DNA of 64,000 bases from contig JBHHXN010000006.1 of the NCBI GenBank assembly GCA_046757025.1, positions 25,944-89,943 on the forward strand, given 5' to 3'. How positions within the stretch are numbered: the stretch's first letter is position 1; every line of letters begins with the position of its first letter. The position numbers were made by a program, and so were the translations under genes. This stretch comes from a bacterium. GTDB lineage: Bacteria > Zhuqueibacterota > Zhuqueibacteria > Oceanimicrobiales > Oceanimicrobiaceae. Positions 41,645-55,483 of this stretch are shown one piece after another. The notes under the pieces were generated by a model that was not told the origin of the DNA, ran no database searches, and saw only the letters and a program-made list of their open reading frames with translations.

Positions 41645-42373
41645 TTACTGTAAAAGCTGCGAAATTAAATCCGGATAATCCGTCAAAACCATTTGCACGC
41701 CGCACTGCTGGCAGCGCTCGAAGTCGGTTTTGGAGTTCACCAGGTAGCCTAAAAAGCGTTTGCCGCGCCGGTGCAGGTCTGCGATTTGCGCACGGTTAAC
41801 AAGCGGCAGGCCGTGGTAAAAAGCGGGTAAGGAAAGCAGTTCACTGCGCGGTTCAAATATTTTCCCTAGACCTACCAAACACCCCAAGCCCCAAAGGCGG
41901 GTTCTACTTTCGCGCGGAAAAATGGCGTAACCCGGGAAATAGGTTTGCACGAGTTTATCTGCCTTTGCGCACCAGGTGAGAAACCACACGCCATCATGAA
42001 ATCTCAGATCTGACAGCGTTTCCTTCAAAATCTGGAAAAGCCGTTCATCGGATATTTTGCAGTCAAAAATGTAATCTTTGGCGCGATATTTTTGCAGAAG
42101 GGTGACGAGATCGATGAGATTATCGCGAAAACGGCCGTCGGGAGACTGGATTTGAAGATCACAAATTTCACTGCAATCGAGTTCATGAATCACTTTGTCC
42201 GGGTGTCCGAATCGCGCCAGGTCGGCGTCGTGGGAGAGAATGATTTTATCGTCTTTGGAAAGCCGCAGATCGGTTTCAAAACCGCTGGCGCCAGCCTGGT
42301 GCGCCCGGTCAAAGGCCAGCAGCGTGTTTTCCGGCCAGATTTTTGAGGAACCTCGGTGGGCAATTATTTTCAT
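41645..42373 (-). CDS. Glycerophosphodiester phosphodiesterase family protein
   Basis: IIAHRG, PENT, ETDLRLSKD, SHD, LTDYP. Confidence 0.9.
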   Translation of the reverse strand: MKIIAHRGSSKIWPENTLLAFDRAHQAGASGFETDLRLSKDDKIILSHDADLARFGHPDKVIHELDCSEICDLQIQSPDGRFRDNLIDLVTLLQKYRAKDYIFDCKISDERLFQILKETLSDLRFHDGVWFLTWCAKADKLVQTYFPGYAIFPRESRTRLWGLGCLVGLGKIFEPRSELLSLPAFYHGLPLVNRAQIADLHRRGKRFLGYLVNSKTDFERCQQCGVQMVLTDYPDLISQLLQ

Positions 42374-42458
42374 TTATCCGGATTTGTTCTTCTCAAAAAA
42401 ATTCGCCTCAGTTTGATACGGATATTCACAGCGCTGCAAAGCTGCAATCAATATGTGA

Positions 42459-42596
42459 AACGCAGAAAACGCCGCGGGCGCAGAGGAAAAAATAGAAAAA
42501 AGGAATAATATCAGTAACAACAATAAGTTTGGTCGTGTGGGATTGTTATACGGCTTTTCGCTTATTGAAATCAAAAACTCTGCAAACCTCTGCGTT
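42459..42596. repeat. REP-like inverted repeat remnant
   Basis: AACGCAGA / GCAGAGG arms pair with CTCTGC / CCTCTGCGTT around an AT-rich spacer. Confidence 0.4.
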
Positions 42597-42858
42597 CTTT
42601 GCACAACTACGTCAATGACTTTCACACTGTACAATTATTTGGATTTGGCAACTGGAATCCGCTTAGAAACTTTGCAAACAAAACAAAGAAATGCCGGTCG
42701 GTAGTACGGATTAAATGTTTTTGATTAGAAAATAAATCAGTGTTTTATCTGTGAAAATCCGTGGCCCAATTATTTTTTATCGCCCCGAAAGCCGCGAACT
42801 TTTGCCTGATTTTGTTCGCGACCTTCGTGACGAATCTTAACGACTTATAAACTCAATT

Positions 42859-44220
42859 TCACTTACGGGAGATCTCCATTTTCTCTTTTGCCAGTCGTTC
42901 GTATTTGGATTTGTATTTTTCATAAAGCTGTGTGTGACGGCTGGTCAAATCGATTTTGCGACCCTGGATGAATTCCTGCTCCACTCGGGTCATGATTTCC
43001 AGCGGATCGCCGTTCGTGACGATGAGCGTGGCGTCTTTGCCGACTTCCAGCGAGCCCACGCGATCGGCGACGCCGAGTATCTGAGCTGGGTAGAGGGTCA
43101 CAGCTTTCAGCGCCTCCTCTTTGGGTAAACCGTACGCTGCAGCCATCGCCGCATGGTACGGCAAATTGCGCGCATGCGCCGCTTCAAAACTAAAACCTAT
43201 GCAGAAAGAAACGCCGGCTTCGTGCAAACGCAGAGCATTTTTGTACGGAGTGTCATAGGCCTCCCATCGGCGCATGGGTGTCGTGAGCACCCCTCCAATG
43301 ATCACGGGAATATTTTTAGCTTTCAGCAATTCGGTGATACGCCAGGCGTCGCGGCCGCCCACGAGAACCATGTTCACGTCTTCCTGAGTTGCCCAGTTGA
43401 CTGACGCCTGAATTTGCAGGATTTCATCGGCATGTATGAACACCGGCGCTTGTTTTTTGAGAACAGGAATCATGGCTTCCCAGCGCAAGTCGGTGGCGTG
43501 GTAAGGCGTACCCTTGTTGCTCATCTCCGCCTCTTTGGTTTTGAGATAGGCCCGAGCTTCGGCAAATGCGTCCTGTATTTTTTGGAGGCTTTCGTCGCGG
43601 CGTTTTAGCAAATCACTGGCGCTCTGCCTGAAAAATCTCGAACGTCCACCCGCTACCATACGCGGCCAGCGTACGTGCAGTCCGGCCGGGGCTTTTAGGG
43701 TCATGTCTTCCCAGGTCCAGCCGTCCAGCATGATGAGGGCGGAGGTGCCCGAGATCAAGCCGCCAGACGGCACACTCAATGTGAGGGTGATACCATTGGC
43801 GCGGGTGACCGGGAACAGCTCGCTATCGGGGTTGATGGCGGCTTCCGCACGCACGTTGGGCTTGATGTCGCCCAATTCCGCGTAATCGCGTGAAGCGCGC
43901 ACCGCGCCGATTTCAACCAGACCCAGTGCCGTGTTGGCGGCGATCAAGCCGGGATAGACGTGTTTACCCTGGACATCGATTTCTTCAGTACCCTCGGGTA
44001 AATCGACATTTTGCCCCAGGGCCGTGATTTTTCCATCCACAAAAAGAACGGCGCCGTTTTCAATAGTTTCGCCGCTGACGGTATGGATGGTGCCGCCCAC
44101 CAGCGCGATGGGATGATCCTGCTTGGGCGCGGGAATTTGATCAGACGCTTTCAGGCTTAGAATGAAACATCCCACGAGGAAGAACATGGTGAATGTGTTT
44201 CTAAATATTTTTTGCTTCAT
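42859..44220 (-). CDS. Secreted amidohydrolase-family protein (metal motif degenerate)
   Basis: Signal peptide; GKHVYPGLIAAN (lacks HxH), ANGIT, PAQILGVADRVGSLEVGKDA. Confidence 0.85.
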   Translation of the reverse strand: MKQKIFRNTFTMFFLVGCFILSLKASDQIPAPKQDHPIALVGGTIHTVSGETIENGAVLFVDGKITALGQNVDLPEGTEEIDVQGKHVYPGLIAANTALGLVEIGAVRASRDYAELGDIKPNVRAEAAINPDSELFPVTRANGITLTLSVPSGGLISGTSALIMLDGWTWEDMTLKAPAGLHVRWPRMVAGGRSRFFRQSASDLLKRRDESLQKIQDAFAEARAYLKTKEAEMSNKGTPYHATDLRWEAMIPVLKKQAPVFIHADEILQIQASVNWATQEDVNMVLVGGRDAWRITELLKAKNIPVIIGGVLTTPMRRWEAYDTPYKNALRLHEAGVSFCIGFSFEAAHARNLPYHAAMAAAYGLPKEEALKAVTLYPAQILGVADRVGSLEVGKDATLIVTNGDPLEIMTRVEQEFIQGRKIDLTSRHTQLYEKYKSKYERLAKEKMEISRK

Positions 44221-44286
44221 TTTTTAACTCCTCGTAAAAATTTACTTTTTAAGAATCCGAATTCTTAGTTTCAATAAGGATCACGA

Positions 44287-47200
44287 TCAATTTGATGGCC
44301 GGCCGCGACCACTGTCTCTATTCTTTTTCTTCTCACCACCGGCTGTCAGCACTTTCTGGATCAATCGCGCGCGCTCTGCTTGTACCTGTTTGCGCATTTC
44401 CCGGTCTTTTTCGAGACTAAAATACTGACGGCCGTCGATCCAGGTTTGTTCGCAAATGGAGTAAGTGGAAAGCGGGTGTCCGCTCCACACCACAAAGTCC
44501 GCGTCTTTTCCCACTTCTAATGAACCGACTCGGTGATCGATTTTGAGCTGTTTTGCTGGATTGAGGGTAACGAATTTCAACGCGTCTTCTTCGCTGATTC
44601 CGCCGTATTTCACGGCTTTGGCTGCTTCCAGGTTCATGCGCCGCGCCAGCTCACCGCTGTCGGAATTGAAGGAAACCACCACGCCGGCGTTGTGCATCAA
44701 AGCGCCGTTGTGGGGGATGGCGTCGTACACTTCGAATTTGTAGGCCCACCAGTCGCTGAAAGTGGAAGCGCCCGCGCCGTGCTGCGCCAGCGCTTCGGCC
44801 ACCTTGTAGCCTTCCAAAACGTGCTGAAACGCGGCAATGGTGAAGCCGAAATCTTCCGCTACCCGCACCAGCATAAGGATTTCATCCTGGCGGTAAGAGT
44901 GGCTGTGGACGTCGCGTTGGCCATGAATGATTTCCAACAGCGCTTCCAGCTCTAAATCTTTGCGAGGTGGAATGACGCCGTTTTTCCTTTTGGTAGAATG
45001 ATATTTTTGCCATTCTTTTTCATAATCCAGAGCAGCCTGGAGACGGTCGCGAATGATCTGCTCCACACCCATACGCGTGTCGGGGTAACGCTGATTGTTG
45101 CTGGAGCGTGAACGTTTGACATTTTCCCCGAGCGCAAATTTAATGCCCTCGGGTGCATCCTTCACCAGCATCTGTTCCGGTTGCGCGCCCCAGCGCAGTT
45201 TGATTATAGAGTTCTGCCCGCCGATGGGATTGGCGGAACCGTGCAATTGGTTGGCGATGGTTAAGCCGCCGGCGATTTCGCGATAGAGAGAAATATCGTA
45301 ACTGTTGATTACGTCTCGGGTGCGGACTTCTGAAGTCACGGCTTGTGAGCCTTCGTTGATGGAGCTGAGTCCGGAGTGGGAATGGGCGTCGATCAAACCG
45401 GGCGTAACGTGTTTACCTCCGGCGTCGATGATGACCGCATTGGAAGCCGCACTTAAATTCTTTCCGATTTTGGTGATCTTGCCTTGCACCATCAGCATGT
45501 CGGTGTTTTCCAGATTTCCCTGCGGGCCGCAAGTCCAGATAGTGGCGTTGCGAACGAGTATCTGTTTCGGCTGTTCTGGAATTTGGGTAAAACCAAAGGC
45601 GCCGGGAGGATTGTTGGGAGCCGGCACGCTTTGCACTTTTTTCGCTATTTTCGCTTTTTGGGACTTTGGCCTGGCCGCTTTCACCGCTTCTTTCCAGGTC
45701 GCGCTCCAGGTAAACGTACTGCCGTCCGGCAGCGCTCCTTGTCCCATCATCTGCTTGTCTTCCACGCTGCCAGAGAGGCGAACCACCCCGGCGTAGCCCA
45801 AACTGTCGCCAGCAAAAGACATGGTTACCCGGCGGCGTTCCAGTTTGATTTTTTTCAATTTCACACGGGTGCTGTCTTGCAGCAGCGATCCACTCAACTT
45901 TTCCGGCTTGCCTTTTATTTCGAGCTCAGTCGATAGGGACTTTTCTTGGGGCAGGGCAAATGTGAGGGTCCATTTTCCAGCCGGATCGACTTCCGGCCGC
46001 TTTTTTATTTCATAGCGTTTGCCGTCAACCCAGACGTCGAGAATTTTGGTTTTTTCACCGAACAAGTCTCCGTCGGTCACCACCAAATGACCTAATTTCC
46101 CAGAGCGGACGCTGCCCAGCAGATTGCTAACTCCTAAGAGTTTCGCCGGTGTGGTGGTCAGGGCAGCCAGCGCCGCGTCGGCAGACAGGCCGCGTTTTAT
46201 GGATTCACGCAAGTTTTTTGTAAAATCAGCGGGCTTTTTTAATTTAGAGGTAGTCAGCGCAAAAGTAACACCCGCATCTTGCAATCGCTTTGGATTTTCT
46301 GGCGCCGCCTCCCAGTGACTCAATTCCTGCAGGCTGACATTCAAGGCTTCTTCTGGAGATTCGACTTTTGGCGTCTCGGGAAAACTCAGCGGCAGGATGA
46401 ACGGCACCCCGGCCTTTTTGATGGCGCCAAGCTGGCGGTATTCGTGTCCGCTACCCAGAATCCACGATTTCAAGCCAAATTCTTTGATGACGTTGATGGC
46501 CCGCAGGCAATTCAAATCGTCATTCACATTGATCAAAACCGGCTGCCGACCGCGCACGGCCATTTCTAACGAGGCCAGCGATTCATTGATCTCCGGACGG
46601 GTTTGGCCAATGGGTTTTTGGGCGTAGGCGGCGTGCGCTTTTTGATACCAATCCGCATCCAAAAAGGTCTGGCGAATCAGCGCAATAACGCCCATTTGAG
46701 AATTCGGGTAACCGCGGCTGCGAAATCCGCCGGCCCGGCTAAACTGAATATTTTGCATGACCTGATCTTTCAAAAGCTGCTGGTTGACCTCGCCGTCGCC
46801 AAGACTGACCAACGCCCCCGTGCCACTAAAAATGCCTTTATTGGGCGCAATCAGGGCCGCAGTAAATCCCAGAGAACGATATTTCTTTAAATCTTCTTTT
46901 TTAGGAGCAAACTTGTCCATAACATGGGTTTCAGGCAGCACGTTTGGATTCCAGTGCTCTGGCCCGGTTCGGGGCTTGCTGCTTTGGGATGATGAGCCGC
47001 CGGGCTGCGTTGGTCGCTGTCTGGTTTCTTTTGGCAATCCGATGTGCGAATACGATTCGATCAATCCCGGATACACGGTCAGGCCATCGTAATCCCAGAT
47101 GCGCGCGTCCGCCGGGGGGGTAACGTTTGCTCCCACCGCTTCGATGACGCCGTCTCGTAAAATGATCGTGCCCTTCTCGATAACTTGACCGGGGGCTTGC

Positions 47201-47355
47201 ACGATTCTGGCGTTGATGAGCGCGTGCACTTGCGGAGTGTTTTCGCGAATCCCCTCCACTGGTTTGGTTTGCGAAAGCACCGGCGCCGTCATGGTCATCG
47301 AAAATATCAAAACAATCGATATTCCGAAAACATGGTTTTTAGTGAGCATTCTCAT
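44287..47355 (-). CDS. Secreted two-domain amidohydrolase-family protein
   Basis: AGAGGAGG SD before ATG 47355; signal peptide. Domain 1 has PGLIESYSH; domain 2 has PGLIDAHSH, HSHSY, QHVLE, NSD, GSLEVGKDAD. Confidence 0.87.
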   Translation of the reverse strand: MRMLTKNHVFGISIVLIFSMTMTAPVLSQTKPVEGIRENTPQVHALINARIVQAPGQVIEKGTIILRDGVIEAVGANVTPPADARIWDYDGLTVYPGLIESYSHIGLPKETRQRPTQPGGSSSQSSKPRTGPEHWNPNVLPETHVMDKFAPKKEDLKKYRSLGFTAALIAPNKGIFSGTGALVSLGDGEVNQQLLKDQVMQNIQFSRAGGFRSRGYPNSQMGVIALIRQTFLDADWYQKAHAAYAQKPIGQTRPEINESLASLEMAVRGRQPVLINVNDDLNCLRAINVIKEFGLKSWILGSGHEYRQLGAIKKAGVPFILPLSFPETPKVESPEEALNVSLQELSHWEAAPENPKRLQDAGVTFALTTSKLKKPADFTKNLRESIKRGLSADAALAALTTTPAKLLGVSNLLGSVRSGKLGHLVVTDGDLFGEKTKILDVWVDGKRYEIKKRPEVDPAGKWTLTFALPQEKSLSTELEIKGKPEKLSGSLLQDSTRVKLKKIKLERRRVTMSFAGDSLGYAGVVRLSGSVEDKQMMGQGALPDGSTFTWSATWKEAVKAARPKSQKAKIAKKVQSVPAPNNPPGAFGFTQIPEQPKQILVRNATIWTCGPQGNLENTDMLMVQGKITKIGKNLSAASNAVIIDAGGKHVTPGLIDAHSHSGLSSINEGSQAVTSEVRTRDVINSYDISLYREIAGGLTIANQLHGSANPIGGQNSIIKLRWGAQPEQMLVKDAPEGIKFALGENVKRSRSSNNQRYPDTRMGVEQIIRDRLQAALDYEKEWQKYHSTKRKNGVIPPRKDLELEALLEIIHGQRDVHSHSYRQDEILMLVRVAEDFGFTIAAFQHVLEGYKVAEALAQHGAGASTFSDWWAYKFEVYDAIPHNGALMHNAGVVVSFNSDSGELARRMNLEAAKAVKYGGISEEDALKFVTLNPAKQLKIDHRVGSLEVGKDADFVVWSGHPLSTYSICEQTWIDGRQYFSLEKDREMRKQVQAERARLIQKVLTAGGEKKKNRDSGRGRPSN

Positions 47356-47597
47356 AAATTGGCCTCCTCTAAAAAGTGATGTACATTTGATTAGATGTGA
47401 TTCTGAATAAAATAATTTTGTTAGAAATGAAAAGAAATGTGTGTAAAGGGTTGTAAAAAAAAGCAAATAAAATATAGGATATTCGATTCCAAAGGGCAAG
47501 AAAATATTTGTAACAAAGTTTTACAATTTAATCCTTTAAAATGAATGGGTTGTTTGGGTAGAGAAACAGAAGAATGGTGGTGGGGGGTGTAAACCGA

Positions 47598-48395
47598 TTA
47601 TTTTTTCTCATCAAGTTGACGCTGCATCTGGCGGACGCGACTTTGCCACTCTTTCTGTTCCATCAAGTCCCCATTGGCAGAAGATGTGAGGGAGCGCACT
47701 TTTTGGAGGAGCTCTGTAGCTTCAGAAAGCTGCTTGAGTTTGATATAGAGCTCCGCTAAAAACAGGAGGTTTTCGGGAAAATCGGGAGCGAATTCGCAGG
47801 CCGCTTTCAGGTGACTTAGAGCCAGGCGGCGGCTGCCAATTCCGGATGGGGCCCCGGGAGCCCGCATGTAAAGCGCTCCCAACAAACGGTGAGGACCGCC
47901 CTGATCAAAAGCGGCATCGATGGCGATGGCTTTTAAAGCGTCGCTGCGCATGGCGGTCATGGCGGTGCGGGCTGCAGCCATTTTTTCACGCGCGAAAAGG
48001 CCGGTGGCGATGGCGCGATAATAATAACCTTCCACGCGAGCGGGGGCCGATTGAATCGCCCGGCTGGCGAAATCTCGAGCCTTCGCAGAATATCTGGATA
48101 TCAGATTTTTGTCCGGACTATGCAACGCCAGCCAGCTGCCCAATTTGGCCGCACGCCAATAAAGGTGAAAATGTTTCCGCTGAGCTTGTTCGATTTCCGT
48201 TTCGAGCCGTTCAAAGGCTTGCTGAACGGATTGAAAATTTCGGGGCTTGATTGCGTACAGGGAATCTACCAGGTACAGAGTCCTTTGAATATCCGCAACC
48301 AGCGTCGTTTCTTTTTCAACGACTTTGTTTGCGCTGCAGCTCAACAGCGACAAAAACAGCAAAACGAAAATGGGCGCTAAGTGGTCTCGCTTCAT
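47598..48395 (-). CDS. TPR lipoprotein, TRAP-T (TatT) / BstC-like
   Basis: Lipobox LLS-C; helical repeats GYYYRAIATG and GGPHRLLGALYMRAPGAPSGIG. ATG overlaps the upstream stop (ATGA). Confidence 0.7.
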   Translation of the reverse strand: MKRDHLAPIFVLLFLSLLSCSANKVVEKETTLVADIQRTLYLVDSLYAIKPRNFQSVQQAFERLETEIEQAQRKHFHLYWRAAKLGSWLALHSPDKNLISRYSAKARDFASRAIQSAPARVEGYYYRAIATGLFAREKMAAARTAMTAMRSDALKAIAIDAAFDQGGPHRLLGALYMRAPGAPSGIGSRRLALSHLKAACEFAPDFPENLLFLAELYIKLKQLSEATELLQKVRSLTSSANGDLMEQKEWQSRVRQMQRQLDEKK

Positions 48396-49321
48396 TCACG
48401 CTTTCCTTTTTCAGATGTAAAATATTTGGCCGCGGTTTCGGCCAGCAGCGTAGAATCGATTTCAGTGATTCCGGAGGACTGCATCAACGACAGCAGCTCC
48501 TGACCCAGCGCGTCCTGATTCATGTCGATGAGCGCGTGCAGCAATTCGCGTTCTTCCGCAGTGCTCCAGTCGTTACCGATCAGCACAAATAAATCGCGCG
48601 GCAAAGGCGGCGAAGTCCAGAGTATCTGCAATTCGTCCCGGATCAAATCGTCGGTTTCGAAAAAGTGTTTGAGCTCCTCATCTACCAAAATGGCTGCTGC
48701 CGGCTCCAATTGATCGATTTCACCGGCATCTCGTGCTTCGAGCATTAAGAAAAGATCGTCAGCGAGATTTTCGCTTGCCTCCAGTTTGAAATGCGTGCCT
48801 GGCTGAAAATCGGCCGGAAAAACCACCCGTTTTAAGTAAGCCCAGTCGATGGCAAAATTTGTTCGTACCCGTTGGCCTTTTAGGGCTGCAAGCGAGCTGG
48901 GTCGCCTTTTTAGGCCCAGAAGGTAGTAGTGTTCAACCTGTTTTCCAAAGCGCGGTGCCTGGGCGATGGGACGGGTGTTTTCGGCATAATTGGAAAGGTG
49001 CTGCAGATAAAATCCCGCAGGTACAAAAACAAACACTGGCCGATGTTTTTGCAAAATCACGATTGCGGAGTCCAAGCGATTACTGATGAGGCCCAGCAGC
49101 GGCTTCTGCTTAAATCGGCTGACTTTCTGACTGAAATATTCACCGATTTTATTTAAATACTCTGAAGCGGATTCGGATGTGGCCCCGGCGTCGCCGGGTT
49201 TTACAATTAAGAAGCTCGGCCTTTTGGCGTCCTGAGCAAAGGTACACAGCCACAAAAGTAGGATAGAAAAAATCGTTAAATAAATAGAGCTTTGTTGTGA
49301 CTTTTTTAAATGGCTTAACAT
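48392..49321 (-). CDS. Periplasmic substrate-binding protein, PhnD/SsuA-like (BstB-like)
   Basis: Signal peptide; PIAQ...YYLL, SLAALKGQR, ILWTSPPLP, LIDMNQDALGQELL recall phosphonate-binding-family PBPs. Start placed at ATG 49321, 2 nt after the RND stop. Confidence 0.65.
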   Translation of the reverse strand: MLSHLKKSQQSSIYLTIFSILLLWLCTFAQDAKRPSFLIVKPGDAGATSESASEYLNKIGEYFSQKVSRFKQKPLLGLISNRLDSAIVILQKHRPVFVFVPAGFYLQHLSNYAENTRPIAQAPRFGKQVEHYYLLGLKRRPSSLAALKGQRVRTNFAIDWAYLKRVVFPADFQPGTHFKLEASENLADDLFLMLEARDAGEIDQLEPAAAILVDEELKHFFETDDLIRDELQILWTSPPLPRDLFVLIGNDWSTAEERELLHALIDMNQDALGQELLSLMQSSGITEIDSTLLAETAAKYFTSEKGKRE

Positions 49322-49323
49322 TT

Positions 49324-52122
49324 CTAATTGTCCCCTTTTTTCATAAAGAGATTTAGTGCGGCCGGCAAAAGCGTCAGGGAAGAAATCAAGCACAAGGTGA
49401 TGCCGATGAATAAAATCAAACCCAGGGAGCCGATCCCGAGGTGATCGCTGGTGGCCAAAATTCCAAATCCGATCATGGTGGTGAGGGAACTGAAAAGCAC
49501 GGCTTTCGCGGCGCCGTGGTAAATGTCGATGGAATTTTGCTTCCAGGCGCGCACCAGATGGATGCCGCTGTCCACACCGATGCCGATCAAAATGGGCAGG
49601 GCAAAAAAGTTGGCGAAATTCCAGTAAATTTTTCCGGGAAGCCATTGCATCAGCCCCAATAACACACCCACACTTGAAATGAGAGGTAAAAGGGAGAAGA
49701 GGGTGGAACGCATAGAACGAGTCCAGAGCAGCAGCAAGATCAAAATGGCGATCAAAGCATAGGTTGCGGAATACAAAAAGCTGCGAATCAATGAACGACC
49801 GTTTTCATAAAGGGCAACGATTTCACCAAAAATGTTGGGATCGATCTTGCGTGTGCGCGTTACGAATTCCTCCAGCTCACGACGATTCCAGGTGTTGTTG
49901 GCCGGGTAGATCAACAGCGCCACCGAACCGTCCTTGCCCTGAAACCGCTCTCGCAAAGAAAGCGGAATTTGCGCGAGGGTCAGGGGCGGCGGATCAAGAT
50001 AGACCAGCACTTCTTTGAGCAGGGTGCGGACCGCCTGAATAAGATCGCTTTGCAAGCTTTGCAACCGTTTTAAACTAACCTCTGCAGGAAGATCGTTCAA
50101 AGTTCGATATAAACCATCCACGGTTCCGGCCAGCTCCGCCAGTGCCGCTTTCGCTTTTTCACTGCTCTGGCGGTATTTGCGGACGGTTTGCCGCACATTC
50201 CACAGCCGACGTTTGACATTGAAAAGCGAAACTTCGGCAGAATTTGAAATGTTGACCCGGGCAAGTTTCTTATGGATGGCCTGCAAAAGCTGCCTTTTCT
50301 GTGCCTCTTCGGCCGGGTACAAACTTTCGGTTCGTCTTACAAACTCCGTCGCGACCAGCAACTTTGCGCGAGTCTGCTCCATGGATGGCCGGTCCGGATG
50401 CAAACTGATGGCAAAATTCGTGCGGTCGTCGGTTGCAAGCAGCAGACGCTGCCATTTCTTCGCTTTCCCTTCCAGGGCTTGCAAATTCAATAAATTGGTG
50501 TCGAAGTCATACTGCCCGAAAAAGTAACCTGCGGATACGAGCAGTATCGCCGCCGTCAGGAACAGACTGAGCTTGTTTCGTGGAGTTTGCTCAAAGGGTA
50601 CCTGCAACGGCAGGATTTCCGCCATGGAGCGCAGACGAAATGATTTTACTATCTTGGGAAATCGCGTATCCAGCAAAAACAACATAGCTGGATAGATCAG
50701 GATCATGCATGATAAACAAATCAACAAACCCGCACCCGCGATGATTCCCAGCTCGGACAGCCCGGAAAATTCGGTGAAGTACGCAGACAGAAAAGCCACG
50801 CCAGTGGTCAATCCGCCCATCCACAAAGCACTGCCAATGGTGTGATAAGTTTTCTCGATGGCCTGAGCCGGGGAGTGCCCCGCATTGAGGGCTTGCTCAT
50901 AGTGGGTGACAAAGTGGATGGAAAAATCGATCCCGAGCGCAACCAGGATCACCGTAAAAACCATGGCCAACAAATTCAAGTGGCCGATGAACAGATAGAC
51001 AAATCCAAAAGTCATGCCGATGGCCAGACACAGGCACAGCGTTGCCAGCGCCGGCCGCAACAGGTTGCCAAAACCAAATGCAAATAAAAGTGTCACCCCC
51101 AAAAGGGCTATCAGCGTACTGCGGGTGAAATCCCGGCGCGTGGTTTTCATTTCTTCGTATTCCAGCGCCGGTACGCCGGCTAACCCCCCGGTAATGTTTA
51201 ACGAATCCGGGAGCGTGCGCAAGGCTGTCCGTAGAGCCTGTTCGGCAAACTGCATGCCTTCCGCATATTGATTCTGCCGATTGGGGTCGGCATGGATGTT
51301 GGCAAAAACCGTCAGCAGCCGACCGTCGTTGGTAAAGAAAAATCCATCACGATCGTACGCGCCATTGCTGAATACAGAAGGCAGCTCATTTTTTAAATCG
51401 AGCGGTTTTTTGAGGTTTGAGCCCGTTTGCTGCAATTCAAGCTGCAGCCACTTAAAGAACTGATTTAATCCACCTAAAAGCATAGGCAGGCGGCGGGAAT
51501 CTCCGGGCAAAGAATCCACCTGCATATACTTCGACAAAATGGAGAGCAGATGATCCAGCGTGGGATTTTGTGACCAGGTTTGTATTTCCGGCAGTTTGTC
51601 GTTGATAAAAAGGAGCATTTCATCAAGCGCCTGTTTGGGCACATATAGTAGGGCCAGCGGACCAAGTGCGTCCCAGTCGATTCGTTCTAAAATTTTTGGA
51701 AAAAGATCAGACCGCTGCCGCAGTAGTTCAGCCCAACGCGCGGCTGCCTGCTTCATGGCCTGCCGTTGTGACTTGTCCGGCAACGCAGGTAAAGCCCCTG
51801 CAGCTTCCTGTAGAGTGGAGCTTAACACCAGCACCAGGAATTTGTCGTCGCCAAATTCGGTTAGATATTTTTGGTAGGAGCGGTTGGCTTCTAACCGGGG
51901 GTTAACCAGTACGCGGCGATCCGAAATTATTTTTAATCTAAAAAAATAAACATAACCACCGAAACTGGCCAGGATGCAGGCGAGGATGATGGCGGCAACC
52001 GGAGTGCGCACCGGAATTTGACGCACTTTAAGCTCGAAATTTACTAAGAATCGAAAAAAGGTGGAAGCAAAAGCTGCAACGGAATTTTTCTTAATCTGAT
52101 TCTCAGACGACGGCAACTTCAT
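49324..52122 (-). CDS. MMPL/RND family transporter (HpnN/BstA-like)
   Basis: Two halves, each with a large periplasmic loop; LGIDFSIH and IGVDSGIH GxD motifs; SSLTTMIGFG. Confidence 0.88.
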   Translation of the reverse strand: MKLPSSENQIKKNSVAAFASTFFRFLVNFELKVRQIPVRTPVAAIILACILASFGGYVYFFRLKIISDRRVLVNPRLEANRSYQKYLTEFGDDKFLVLVLSSTLQEAAGALPALPDKSQRQAMKQAAARWAELLRQRSDLFPKILERIDWDALGPLALLYVPKQALDEMLLFINDKLPEIQTWSQNPTLDHLLSILSKYMQVDSLPGDSRRLPMLLGGLNQFFKWLQLELQQTGSNLKKPLDLKNELPSVFSNGAYDRDGFFFTNDGRLLTVFANIHADPNRQNQYAEGMQFAEQALRTALRTLPDSLNITGGLAGVPALEYEEMKTTRRDFTRSTLIALLGVTLLFAFGFGNLLRPALATLCLCLAIGMTFGFVYLFIGHLNLLAMVFTVILVALGIDFSIHFVTHYEQALNAGHSPAQAIEKTYHTIGSALWMGGLTTGVAFLSAYFTEFSGLSELGIIAGAGLLICLSCMILIYPAMLFLLDTRFPKIVKSFRLRSMAEILPLQVPFEQTPRNKLSLFLTAAILLVSAGYFFGQYDFDTNLLNLQALEGKAKKWQRLLLATDDRTNFAISLHPDRPSMEQTRAKLLVATEFVRRTESLYPAEEAQKRQLLQAIHKKLARVNISNSAEVSLFNVKRRLWNVRQTVRKYRQSSEKAKAALAELAGTVDGLYRTLNDLPAEVSLKRLQSLQSDLIQAVRTLLKEVLVYLDPPPLTLAQIPLSLRERFQGKDGSVALLIYPANNTWNRRELEEFVTRTRKIDPNIFGEIVALYENGRSLIRSFLYSATYALIAILILLLLWTRSMRSTLFSLLPLISSVGVLLGLMQWLPGKIYWNFANFFALPILIGIGVDSGIHLVRAWKQNSIDIYHGAAKAVLFSSLTTMIGFGILATSDHLGIGSLGLILFIGITLCLISSLTLLPAALNLFMKKGDN

Positions 52123-52125
52123 ACA

Positions 52126-54885
52126 CTACAAAGACTGCGTAATGCGCATCCAGGCCAGCCGGCCGATCTCTGGCAATCCCACAAATTCTCGGTGTTTATT
52201 GTTCATGAGATTCTGGATGGTCAAAGTTAATTTTGTGTTGTCAGAAAAGGGCAATTGGTAGCTGGTGTTTAAATCTACTACCGTGTACCTTTCTACTTCG
52301 CCAACGAAAATGCCGGAATTTACCGGAAATCCATCGATAAATCGGAATCTGAGATTACCGTCAAAACCCGCTTCGTCGTTGCGATAATTGATGATCGCAC
52401 CGATTTTATTTTTGGGCGCGTTCAATGCAATATCGGAGCGACCGTCTTTGCTTTCAAAATAATCTTTGTCGATATACGAATAATTGCCGGTGATATTCCA
52501 ATTTTTGTTCAGAAAGTAAGTCAGACTCAAATCCAGGCCGGTGACCGAAACGTCGCCGACGTTGCGGTAGGTGAGAATGATATCGGTGCCATTTTGAACT
52601 TCCACTGGCGAAATAATCCCGATGGGCAAGGTGGCAAATTCCGGATTGCGGGTAAATTGCGTGACCAGGTCCTTTGCCAGTTGCGGTGTGAGAATGGTGT
52701 TGGCCACGATGTCGTTGATGAGCACGGTTTCCAGGGCGTCCACATCCACAAACACGCTGGGGGTTTCCGTGCGCAAGGGGCCCACAAAATCTTTGATGCG
52801 CGAATGATACACATCCACACTGGCGAGGAACTTGTGACTCAATAATCCCTTGTAACCCAATTCAAAGGTCGTGGTGGAGGATTCGGCAACAGAACGAATG
52901 TCGCGCACAAAAGTTGGGTCGATGGGATCAAATTGCTGGGTTTCGGTGTTTAACACTCCCAGAATGCCGGGAACGGTTTCGCTGAGCTCTTTTGGCAGAA
53001 TATTCGCGATTAAATTTCTTTGTGCCGCCGGTGTGCCGGCGATAATCAAATCGCGCATGGCCGGCCACACCGTGTTTACGTCCGCAGGTATGTAGGTGTT
53101 GGCGGTGGGGATTCGGCCTTTGGAGGCTAAATACTCACCAAAGGAGGAAACCATCATCGGCCGTCCGTCGGCGCCAAATCTAAAATTGAATCCGGTTGGC
53201 CAGGTTCCCAATGCCCGGACATTGGTGAGCGTCTCTCCAAAAAAAGGCACCAGTAGCGGATCGATAGCAGCCGTGGGCTGCGTGCCGCCCAGGTTGTCCG
53301 AAAACAGGTTGTCAGAGGTTGGCGTACTAAACGCTTTGTTAAAGGTGACCCGTAAATTTCCCGCCTGGTTGGGTTTAAACACCAGTGCCGTTCGGGGGGA
53401 AAAATTCAAGCCGTCTAAACGACTGTGATCGTCGATGCGTGCGGCCACAATGAATTTGAATTTTGAAGACAAGTTGGTTTCCGATTGCAAATAAGCGCCG
53501 ATTTCATCCACGTTGTCGTGATCTTCATTGCGGCCATTTATCGTGCCTTGGGTATCGGGACGGGTGAGAAGTAAATCCAAACCGTAGGTAAAATGTTGAG
53601 TGTCGCCGATTGAAAAATTGTGTTGAGCCTGTGCCACAAACAAACTGGAGTTGTTGATGACCGTCTGGCCGGTCCGCAAAAAGTAAGTGTCGCCGGTGTT
53701 TATTTTATTCAGGAAGACCTGCGCAAAGAGATTTTTGTAGAGCAATCGTCCCTGAATGTATTTGAAGCTGGCATTCAAGGCCTGGGCCGCGCCTTGATTG
53801 GTGATCTCGATGTTGTCGCCACGACTGAATCCACCGTTAACGATGAAGCTCAATTCGGGGGTCAAACGAAAATCGACCCGGCCGTCAAACGCGGTGCTTT
53901 CGATGTCAAAAATTCGGGCGCCGATGCGCAGGGTATCGGGGTCCGCGCCGGCGTCGAGAGCATCCTGTCGCGCATTTTGCTCAGCCTGGTCGATGGATTC
54001 GAAATCATCGCCTTTGTAGTACTGAACAGAAAATTTGTAACCAATTTTGTTGTTTAAAACTCCAGCATGTCGAATGGTGCCAATGAGCACATTTCGTTCG
54101 CCTCCGCCCACGCTCACTGCCGTGCCTTTGGAATCAAACGGCGATTTCGTGAGCACGTGCATGACGCCGTTGGCGCTGTTTGGACCGTACAGCGCGGAGG
54201 CCGGTCCCGACACCACTTCGATGCGTTCCACATCCAGATTGCTGGTGGGAATTAATTGAAACGCGTTCAACCGCACTGCGGGAATGCGGGTTATGCGATT
54301 GTCCACCATGGACAGGAGGGAGCCTGAAAAAAGGTCGTTGAAGCCGCGAATCACCACGCGCGATTGATTGAGCCCGGCTGTGATGATGTCCACGGACGGC
54401 AAAGCTTTGAGATGCTCGGTTGCTGTGAGCGCCATACGAGATTCGATGGCAGACGATTCCACCACCGAGATGGAGGCCGGCGCATCCAGCATTTTTTCTT
54501 TGCGACGCGAAGCCGAGACCGTCACCGGATTGACTTGAATGCCGGTAGAAACAAGTTTAATTTCAAGAGTTTTCGTATCGCCGTCCCCAAGGATTAAATC
54601 CGAAATGCGATGCTTTTTATAGCCGATGTAAGAGATCGTCACTGTATAGGTGGCGGGCGGCAAATTGCTGATCACGAATTCTCCTGAGGAACCGGACGCG
54701 GTGCCAGTCTTGATTTCCGAAGATGAGATGACGATGTTTGCACCAGGCAGCGTTGTGCCCGTTTTCGAATCCTGGACCATGCCTTTGATTGTGGCAGTTT
54801 GAGCATAAACGGATACGGGAAAATCACCTGCTAAAAAAAGAAGTGAGATGATAATAATCGGGACCAACGGTTTTGATTTCGACAT
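52126..54885 (-). CDS. TonB-dependent receptor with N-terminal carboxypeptidase-regulatory-like domain
   Basis: Signal peptide, ISYIGY, VTVSASRR..APASISVV plug, ERIEVVSGPASALYG, NLMN near the C-terminus. Confidence 0.92.
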   Translation of the reverse strand: MSKSKPLVPIIIISLLFLAGDFPVSVYAQTATIKGMVQDSKTGTTLPGANIVISSSEIKTGTASGSSGEFVISNLPPATYTVTISYIGYKKHRISDLILGDGDTKTLEIKLVSTGIQVNPVTVSASRRKEKMLDAPASISVVESSAIESRMALTATEHLKALPSVDIITAGLNQSRVVIRGFNDLFSGSLLSMVDNRITRIPAVRLNAFQLIPTSNLDVERIEVVSGPASALYGPNSANGVMHVLTKSPFDSKGTAVSVGGGERNVLIGTIRHAGVLNNKIGYKFSVQYYKGDDFESIDQAEQNARQDALDAGADPDTLRIGARIFDIESTAFDGRVDFRLTPELSFIVNGGFSRGDNIEITNQGAAQALNASFKYIQGRLLYKNLFAQVFLNKINTGDTYFLRTGQTVINNSSLFVAQAQHNFSIGDTQHFTYGLDLLLTRPDTQGTINGRNEDHDNVDEIGAYLQSETNLSSKFKFIVAARIDDHSRLDGLNFSPRTALVFKPNQAGNLRVTFNKAFSTPTSDNLFSDNLGGTQPTAAIDPLLVPFFGETLTNVRALGTWPTGFNFRFGADGRPMMVSSFGEYLASKGRIPTANTYIPADVNTVWPAMRDLIIAGTPAAQRNLIANILPKELSETVPGILGVLNTETQQFDPIDPTFVRDIRSVAESSTTTFELGYKGLLSHKFLASVDVYHSRIKDFVGPLRTETPSVFVDVDALETVLINDIVANTILTPQLAKDLVTQFTRNPEFATLPIGIISPVEVQNGTDIILTYRNVGDVSVTGLDLSLTYFLNKNWNITGNYSYIDKDYFESKDGRSDIALNAPKNKIGAIINYRNDEAGFDGNLRFRFIDGFPVNSGIFVGEVERYTVVDLNTSYQLPFSDNTKLTLTIQNLMNNKHREFVGLPEIGRLAWMRITQSL

Positions 54886-54984
54886 GCTTTTTTCTCCCTC
54901 AGATATGATCAAGAATTGCTCATCTTGATGAATGTGATGAATAATAATAAATTAACTTAAGATTGTCAACAGTTAAATATTGGA

Positions 54985-55370
54985 ATCTGCATATCATTTG
55001 ATATTAAGAATTTTTACGATTTGGAGAGTTAGACACCCACCTAAATCCTCCTTCGAGGGAGGACTTCTTTTAACACTTGGGGGGGATGAAAGGGGGGGGG
55101 GGGCGCATCCACCGCCTCCGTTCAATCGTCATCTTTGAGTTTGAGTTTCAGTGGACCTTCTGAGCTATTTTGTGTGGGAGTCGCACGTGCCCTCTCGGTC
55201 TGTTGAGCAGGACCCTTGAGGGGAGAAGCGATTTAAGCGAGCAAAGGGGGTTTTTGTGTTTAGAAACTCCGTTTGGAATCTGGATTTCGTTTTATATTCA
55301 AAACCTTTGCGATTTGGAGAGTTAGATACCCACCTAAATCCTCCCTCAAGGGGAGAAGCGGTTTTCCCCC
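54985..55370. repeat. Degenerate dispersed repeat: two GTTAGA(C/T)ACCCACCTAAA-hairpin units
   Basis: Units ending near 55065 and 55355 match each other and 61795-61875. Region 55130-55370 aligns loosely with 61620-61910. Confidence 0.7.
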
Positions 55371-55426: not shown

Positions 55427-55469
55427 AAAAACGGAAATAGTCCAGCCAATTTGGCTGAACTATTTCCGT
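55427..55469 (-). terminator. Intrinsic terminator downstream of the second TBDR
   Basis: ACGGAAATAG-TCCAGCCAA / TTGGCTGAA-CTATTTCCGT hairpin, followed by a U tract on the minus strand. Confidence 0.65.
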
Positions 55470-55483
55470 CAGTTGATTGTCAA

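Follow-up and report, generated by a model that had tools for sequence, protein, structure and literature searches.

We examined a run of four genes on the minus strand of a 64,000-nucleotide stretch of bacterial DNA (contig JBHHXN010000006.1; the whole stretch is referred to as the window), which an initial annotation had described as encoding a TonB-dependent receptor (TBDR), an MMPL/RND transporter, a PhnD-like binding protein, and a TPR lipoprotein, with gaps of 3 and 2 nt followed by a 4-nt overlap. Open reading frame (ORF) calls together with Pfam and NCBIfam domains confirmed this layout: 3 nt separate the TBDR and RND genes (a gap also seen at locus L007), 2 nt separate the RND gene from that of the periplasmic binding protein (PBP), and the PBP and lipoprotein genes share a 4-nt ATGA overlap. 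One public gene call places the RND start later, giving a protein of 900 aa (P0206) rather than 932 aa. The stretch is present in four runs of one hydrothermal-vent study, one of them possibly its source, and because one contig from another run of that study covers the whole stretch, the gene order is not an assembly artefact. Taken together, our sequence comparisons indicate that the cassette is real and conserved and predict that it encodes a trans-periplasmic lipid relay of the BstABC type, outside BstABC and HpnN proper. The four genes are as follows.

52126..54885, minus strand: TonB-dependent receptor, 919 aa (ORF call; Pfam and NCBIfam domains)
49324..52122, minus strand: HpnN/BstA-like MMPL/RND inner-membrane transporter, 932 aa (ORF call; Pfam and NCBIfam; PDB 5khn match; tree)
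48392..49321, minus strand: BstB-like periplasmic binding protein with a PhnD fold, 309 aa (NCBIfam; PDB 7t1m match; fold match)
47598..48395, minus strand: BstC/TatT-like TPR lipoprotein, 265 aa, lipobox LLSC with Cys20 (NCBIfam; 7t1s match; Foldseek)

The binding protein, lipoprotein and transporter

Judging from sequence and predicted fold, the PBP is a distant but real relative of BstB. Its only NCBIfam match at E 0.01 was BstB (52.8 bits against a cut-off of 350), and its only sequence match in the PDB was the BstB structure 7t1m (E 1e-5). An AlphaFold model of the protein (pLDDT 87.7) likewise had 7t1m as its best Foldseek match (E 6e-18, TM 0.70/0.83), with oxyanion binders such as ArrX close behind (E 1.5e-16, TM 0.63/0.75). 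The BstB residues assigned to the sterol head group, E118, Y120, and N192, come from a docked site that the source paper itself calls unverified (PMC10942540), and they align in sequence with E130, Y132, and D214 of the PBP. Among 16 orthologues, E130 is kept in 15, Y132 in 12 (phenylalanine in the other 4), and D214 in all 16; the corresponding numbers among 32 wider relatives are 20, 24, and 29. Other relatives of the PBP carry the labels Acidobacteriota, Planctomycetota, and Longimicrobiales. We rejected a PhnD-type phosphonate ABC system, as the PBP had no PhnD family match and no ABC permease or ATPase genes adjoin it.

The lipoprotein is, on similar grounds, a distant but real relative of BstC. 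It scored 80.2 bits against the BstC NCBIfam model (cut-off 350), matched 7t1s (BstC) in the PDB at E 2e-16 and TatT chains at 1e-6 and 2e-3, and its predicted structure (pLDDT 91.7) ranked 7t1s first in Foldseek. The Bst-like folds proposed for the PBP and lipoprotein were therefore borne out, with 7t1m and 7t1s at the top by both sequence and structure. The alignment covers 23 BstC cavity residues, of which 16 are identical in the lipoprotein, compared to 53 of 152 residues overall (35%; hand count, binomial p 7e-4), a difference to be read with the caveat that core residues tend to be conserved in any fold. The lipobox cysteine, Cys20, is invariant (24 of 24), and the protein is predicted to be sorted to the outer membrane. 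Carriage by phages or plasmids was considered and dropped, since no lipoprotein relatives were present in the viral contigs or the plasmids searched.

The RND protein scored highest against HpnN (TIGR03480; 430 bits, cut-off 752), with BstA at 229.7 bits (cut-off 1400), and its best PDB match was HpnN 5khn (E 1e-42). In a tree of 124 sequences, 49 of which were scanned for labels and which included no true BstA, it fell in a clade of 37 (support 1.0) adjoining Planctomycetota HpnN-like proteins and outside the 73-member group that contains the above-cut-off HpnN sequences; those close relatives that have names are labeled candidate division KSB1, to which the host probably also belongs. All 36 clade members compared have the transmembrane residue Asp399 and the pair Thr881/Thr882, as do most HpnN sequences; we take them to be proton-relay residues.

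The RND and PBP proteins are likely to act as a unit, a reading of the evidence that draws on natural fusions and on tree agreement. Of the 150 best PBP relatives, three (P0054, P0061, and P0068) are RND-PBP fusions in which an additional hydrophobic segment marks the junction, and one of them (P0068) comes from a Gemmatimonadetes metagenome-assembled genome (MAG) in which the adjacent locus tag (P0023) is a lipoprotein relative. Across ten genomes with the linked cassette, the RND and PBP trees are congruent (distance-matrix rho 0.77, p 3e-4). The initial annotation had described the genes as BstABC-like, and this stands insofar as the three protein types share one operon. Membership in BstABC or HpnN is not supported, because all three proteins score well under the curated cut-offs for Bst and HpnN.

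The receptor and the conservation of its linkage

The TBDR comprises a signal peptide, a CarboxypepD_reg-like N-terminal extension, a plug (PF07715), and a beta-barrel (PF00593), and it contains the TonB-box-like segment VNPVTVSA. The protein and its host thus combine the plug, 22-strand-type barrel, TonB-box-like segment, and genomic TonB of a TonB-dependent transporter; the host genome (G000) has TonB genes, with 14 TonB_C matches. The best NCBIfam model, TOL_0244 (NF053590), matched only residues 123-522 at 149.8 bits; its cut-off of 645 is missed, so the receptor is not assigned to that family. An ESM Atlas look-up returned generic TBDR clusters only. In a tree of 48 TBDRs, the cassette-linked receptors form a single clade with a support of 1.0, and its 12 members comprise 10 that are linked to the cassette, one cut off by a contig end, and one from genome G048.

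We surveyed the cassette in 167 genomes of the phylum, which are incomplete MAGs (G158 and G162 enter only the tallies of 167), and in the 20 family relatives of G000, or 21 genomes with G000 itself. The PBP search returned 14 matches in the phylum sample, 13 of them strong (G000, 11 of the 20 family relatives, and G142); the match in G138 was weak and stop-containing and was set aside. The BstC model gave 12 strong matches in the same sample, all among PBP carriers, with only G061 lacking one. Weak matches to this model in other families were discarded as cassette members, as none of the 10 loci read had the PBP or this RND clade.

All four genes stand in order on one contig in seven genomes (G000, G049, G051, G055, G059, G060, and G068), with a 129-aa ORF between TBDR and RND in G068 and an RND gene split over two ORFs in G049 (L041:7747-10463). 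In G052 and G063, the TBDR-RND and PBP-lipoprotein pairs lie at contig ends, consistent with the same order, while in G062 the TBDR-RND pair is intact and another gene precedes the PBP gene. A small ORF between the PBP and lipoprotein genes of G052 (L040:1320-1658) resembles a PemK/MazF toxin.

In 9 of the 11 relatives that are informative on this point, the TBDR gene immediately precedes the RND gene. Within the family, the receptor clade was found in 9 of 11 cassette-bearing relatives versus 0 of 9 cassette-free ones, with five candidates scored per genome (Fisher p 3e-4, a value that exaggerates the significance, since neither kin nor linked genes count as independent). The four-gene order proposed initially is therefore conserved within the family, whereas a universal link to the TBDR is not supported. 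G054 and G142 have the trio with no receptor next to it (G061 is uninformative), and so does locus L133, the only one of the wider loci (2 from a genome scan, 10 from a metagenome scan) that both comes from outside the family and extends upstream of the RND gene. Given these three cases, the receptor appears, on present evidence, to have been added to the trio at the family level.

Could the position of the receptor be inherited synteny without shared function? Every linked case belongs to a single family, and in G048 the receptor clade is kept alone, as such inheritance would allow. Against this, the link extends across 10 genera with changed flanks, the genes being separated by 3 nt in two of the genera and overlapping or nearly touching in others, and the receptor clade is missing from all nine cassette-free family genomes, where other neighbors survive. 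We consider inherited synteny very improbable.

Cargo, direction of transport and genomic surroundings

The initial annotation had noted that the window contains no cyclase gene. This proved correct, and it extends to the host genome (94.8% complete), in which no triterpene cyclase domain of either kind, squalene/phytoene synthase, squalene epoxidase, or HpnH was detected above cut-off; the cyclase-like proteins of relatives also found nothing there by tblastn. A full-length triterpene cyclase was present in 0 of the 13 cassette genomes among the 167. Cyclase-sized matches occurred in only 6 of 167 genomes, and the three that were scanned fall below the SHC/OSC cut-offs, so we do not claim an anti-correlation between cassette and cyclase. 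These six cyclase-like genes encode 605-653 aa (split in G088), most with a DADD motif (L062:604-2484, L058, L059, L061, and L063). Matches to PF13243 in G059 and G142 were not accepted as cyclases at 283-417 aa and 30-41 bits versus 323. For breakdown, none of the 21 family genomes yielded KstD (E 1e-25) or KshA, in a search in which no control genome passed the cut-offs, so that its sensitivity was not demonstrated; as it stands, this result favors use in membranes over breakdown.

Lipid scavenging is the simplest reading of these data, because the trio is Bst-like, nothing cyclic was found to export, the receptor is of an import type, and no steroid catabolism was found. Inward transport is our best guess given the added receptor and the cyclase-free hosts. 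Import of a polycyclic lipid thus stays the leading reading, on account of the Bst-like folds, the family-conserved order, and the lack of detectable cyclase or squalene genes. Specifically, we suggest, with somewhat less than even confidence, that the four-gene run mediates TonB-driven uptake of an external sterol- or hopanoid-type lipid for the cell's own membranes. The TonB-energized receptor would bring the lipid across the outer membrane. The BstC-like lipoprotein, which by prediction is anchored to that membrane, would take it into its central cavity, and the BstB-like protein would ferry it through the periplasm. The proton-driven RND protein might then insert the lipid into the inner membrane, in the NPC2-to-NPC1 direction; alternatively, it might send inner-membrane lipid back to the outer membrane, in the HpnN direction. 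A bolder version, which we regard as doubtful, is that the cassette is a dedicated four-part, TonB-energized machine with which free-living bacteria unable to make triterpenoids harvest hopanoids or sterols from neighbors (for example, vent methanotrophs or animals) for their membranes, with the RND protein working inward like NPC1 and the lipoprotein docking on the receptor. Precedents for such uptake are the slowed growth on estradiol that follows deletion of a TBDR (PMC7793797) and the uptake of added hopanoids by an shc mutant (PMC3883690).

Several observations weigh against import. The direction of the RND step is, by comparison with its characterized relatives, the weakest link of the import reading, because those HpnN/MmpL relatives are exporters (PMC8277102); BstABC is also proposed to export (PMC10942540), and Bst families differ in cargo (PMC11713862). 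The receptor is missing beside the trio in the genomes named above and in L133, the only informative locus outside the family, and, conversely, G048 keeps the receptor clade with neither an RND orthologue nor a PBP. In the ten linked genomes, TBDR tree distances agree poorly with those of the RND protein (rho 0.38, p 0.018) and of the PBP (0.14, p 0.19), and the tallies come from incomplete MAGs and from kin that are not independent. A squalene-synthase-like gene is present in 6 of 13 cassette genomes. The trio of L133 (3661-11880) is divergent from genes for a type 2 isopentenyl diphosphate isomerase and a polyprenyl synthase, followed by a sulfotransferase gene, an arrangement that fits a home-made isoprenoid cargo. 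As to the lipoprotein, VIA-align gave a tie between human PTPIP51 (Z 22.6), TatT 8g52 (22.4), and 7t1s (22.2), its conserved GGPxR motif is common to the fatty-acid-binding TatT 8g52, and the BstC sterol anchor E86 corresponds, by the register of one hidden Markov model alignment, to D95, in a column that is variable (D 9, G 5, and E 3 of 24; acidic in 12 of 24).

Alternatively, the trio might act like HpnN and export a home-made, non-cyclized lipid (a linear isoprenoid, or a sulfated or amino-acid lipid), moving it outward from the inner membrane to the outer one. The receptor would then be either the outer-membrane end of the route or an importer that is co-transcribed with the trio but takes up a different substrate, for instance peptides. 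The exporter precedents, the receptor-free trios, the weak receptor-trio tree agreement, and the isoprenoid genes of L133 all fit such a role. A PF13469 sulfotransferase follows the trio again in L134 (2014-2417), with 43% identity to the L133 copy, and the L133/L134-type trio, found in other lineages, may be a variant acting on a sulfated isoprenoid. The gene before the receptor encodes aminopeptidase P in L007, L042, L045, and L113, and several loci have amidohydrolases after the trio. Against export, no candidate biosynthesis gene tracks the cassette, squalene-synthase-like genes being present in 5 of 11 cassette-bearing versus 3 of 9 cassette-free family relatives (p 0.67). At E 1e-10, none of the 13 cassette genomes contained the L133-type sulfotransferase, and we excluded it from the cassette of this family. 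The receptor clade, moreover, follows the trio and not the peptidases. Amidohydrolase, aminopeptidase P, and GDPD genes often adjoin the cassette and also occur without it, and they do not track it: the neighboring amidohydrolase is present in 9 of 11 cassette-bearing versus 4 of 9 cassette-free family relatives, GDPD is present in 18 of 21 family genomes, and a close aminopeptidase P is also found in the cassette-free G053 and G057. We regard export as possible and less than probable.

Import of a different hydrophobic compound, such as long-chain fatty acids or alcohols, alkanes, quinones, or carotenoids, seems to us rather unlikely. In its favor, long-chain fatty acids are bound by TatT proteins, which have the same fold (PMC11713862), the NCBIfam model that best fits the receptor is that of TOL_0244, a receptor induced sevenfold on n-C28 alkane (PMC6304351), and BstC E86 is not conserved. 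On the other side, the three partners are known together only from the sterol system, the lipoprotein is nearer to BstC than to the TatT chains, the RND protein is closest to hopanoid transporters, and the TOL_0244 match is partial and far under its cut-off.

If uptake of a sterol- or hopanoid-type lipid is correct, the cassette would be a candidate machine for a question left open in the Bst paper, namely how bacteria acquire sterol-type lipids that they do not make themselves. The Bst trio could then work without biosynthesis, possibly in reverse, and would gain an outer-membrane gate, and finding a hopanoid or sterol biomarker in a cell would not imply that this cell had made it. Although the host is uncultured, the idea is testable because all four proteins can be expressed heterologously.

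Two further features bear on the limits of the operon.

54941..54969, minus strand: sigma-70-type promoter-like site before the TBDR gene, TTGACA-17-TATTAT (11 of 12 consensus positions)
55430..55470, minus strand: terminator-like hairpin of 19 pairs at the end of a separate upstream TBDR gene, the upstream limit of the operon

Since a sigma-70-like site precedes the cassette TBDR gene and the hairpin closes the unrelated TBDR gene upstream, the four-gene transcription unit likely begins at the cassette TBDR. TTGACA was read by eye upstream of 7 of 11 orthologous TBDR genes, the window's own included; promoter-like sites over the region were not above shuffled expectation (7 vs 8.5). Control of the TBDR by a riboswitch or other RNA was rejected, with 0 Rfam matches in the window and five loci. 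Upstream of the promoter-like site, the intergenic region 55040-55370 contains a short repeat in two near-identical copies (GAGGATTTAGGTGGG...AACTCTCCAAATCG), along with a poly-C run that differs between sequencing runs.

Downstream of the cassette, at 41645-47499 on the minus strand, lie genes for a secreted double amidohydrolase (about 1022 aa), a 453-aa amidohydrolase, and a GDPD. Genes of the fatty-acid hydroxylase/sterol desaturase family occur near the trio at L044:15113-15913 and L133:1949-2818. A different cassette, found in other families (L049:728-17941, L056, and L186:4178-16928), encodes a weakly BstC-like TPR protein, a DUF1302-like protein, an HAE3-type MMPL protein, and a LolA-like protein, near FabH-like, sulfotransferase, and secreted arylsulfotransferase genes. 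For sulfotransferases, no link between BT_0416 and Stf3 was found in the available text of PMC9417993. Elsewhere in G000, on contig C4, L124:9361-15720 encodes a second MMPL protein (805 aa), an outer-membrane efflux protein, and a pair of MlaC-domain proteins, one of which is fused to DUF3047. Radical-SAM genes lie nearby, and by its gene content this is a separate lipid export locus. The genome also has two heme-copper oxidase subunit I genes.

Comparison with known systems

TonB-dependent uptake of steroids and hydrocarbons has precedents in EdcT (estradiol, PMC7793797), Nov2c232 (bile salts, bioRxiv 2021.05.19.444901), and TOL_0244 (alkane, PMC6304351). EdcT and Nov2c232, cited here as precedents for cargo, lie in catabolic clusters, and the available text of the three sources describes no Bst-like partners. 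Our literature search found no description of a TBDR joined to a Bst-like trio, with most subscription papers outside its coverage. The word TonB does not appear in the main text of either PMC10942540 or PMC11713862, whose figures and supplements, including neighborhood diagrams, could still show a receptor.

By both family model and PDB structure, the RND protein most closely matches HpnN (TIGR03480; 5khn), and it keeps the transmembrane Asp and Thr-Thr residues; the differences are that it lies outside the HpnN clade, at 430 of 752 bits, and that no shc or hpnH was found in the genome. The TatT/TPAT proteins (Tp0956, 3u64; Es_TatT, 8g52) share with the lipoprotein a helical ring fold, a lipoprotein anchor, and a proposed role in lipid uptake. 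In contrast with them, the lipoprotein has no TRAP P/Q/M genes alongside, its partners being an RND protein and a PhnD-fold protein.

The closest parallel is BstABC of Methylococcus capsulatus (PMC10942540; 7t1m, 7t1s), with which the cassette shares three protein types, their A-B-C arrangement, their folds, the BstB head-group residues, and most BstC cavity residues. The initial annotation had taken it as established that BstA, BstB, and BstC bind and move sterols, which overstates that paper: it shows binding, but deletions failed and its authors speak of potential transporters. The window's proteins differ from BstABC in being only 17-25% identical in structural alignments and below all NCBIfam cut-offs (1400, 350, and 350). 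No osc, sdm, or smo lies near the cassette, and no cyclase or epoxidase was found in the genome; its neighbors are instead amidohydrolases and a TBDR, and the operon is led by an added receptor.

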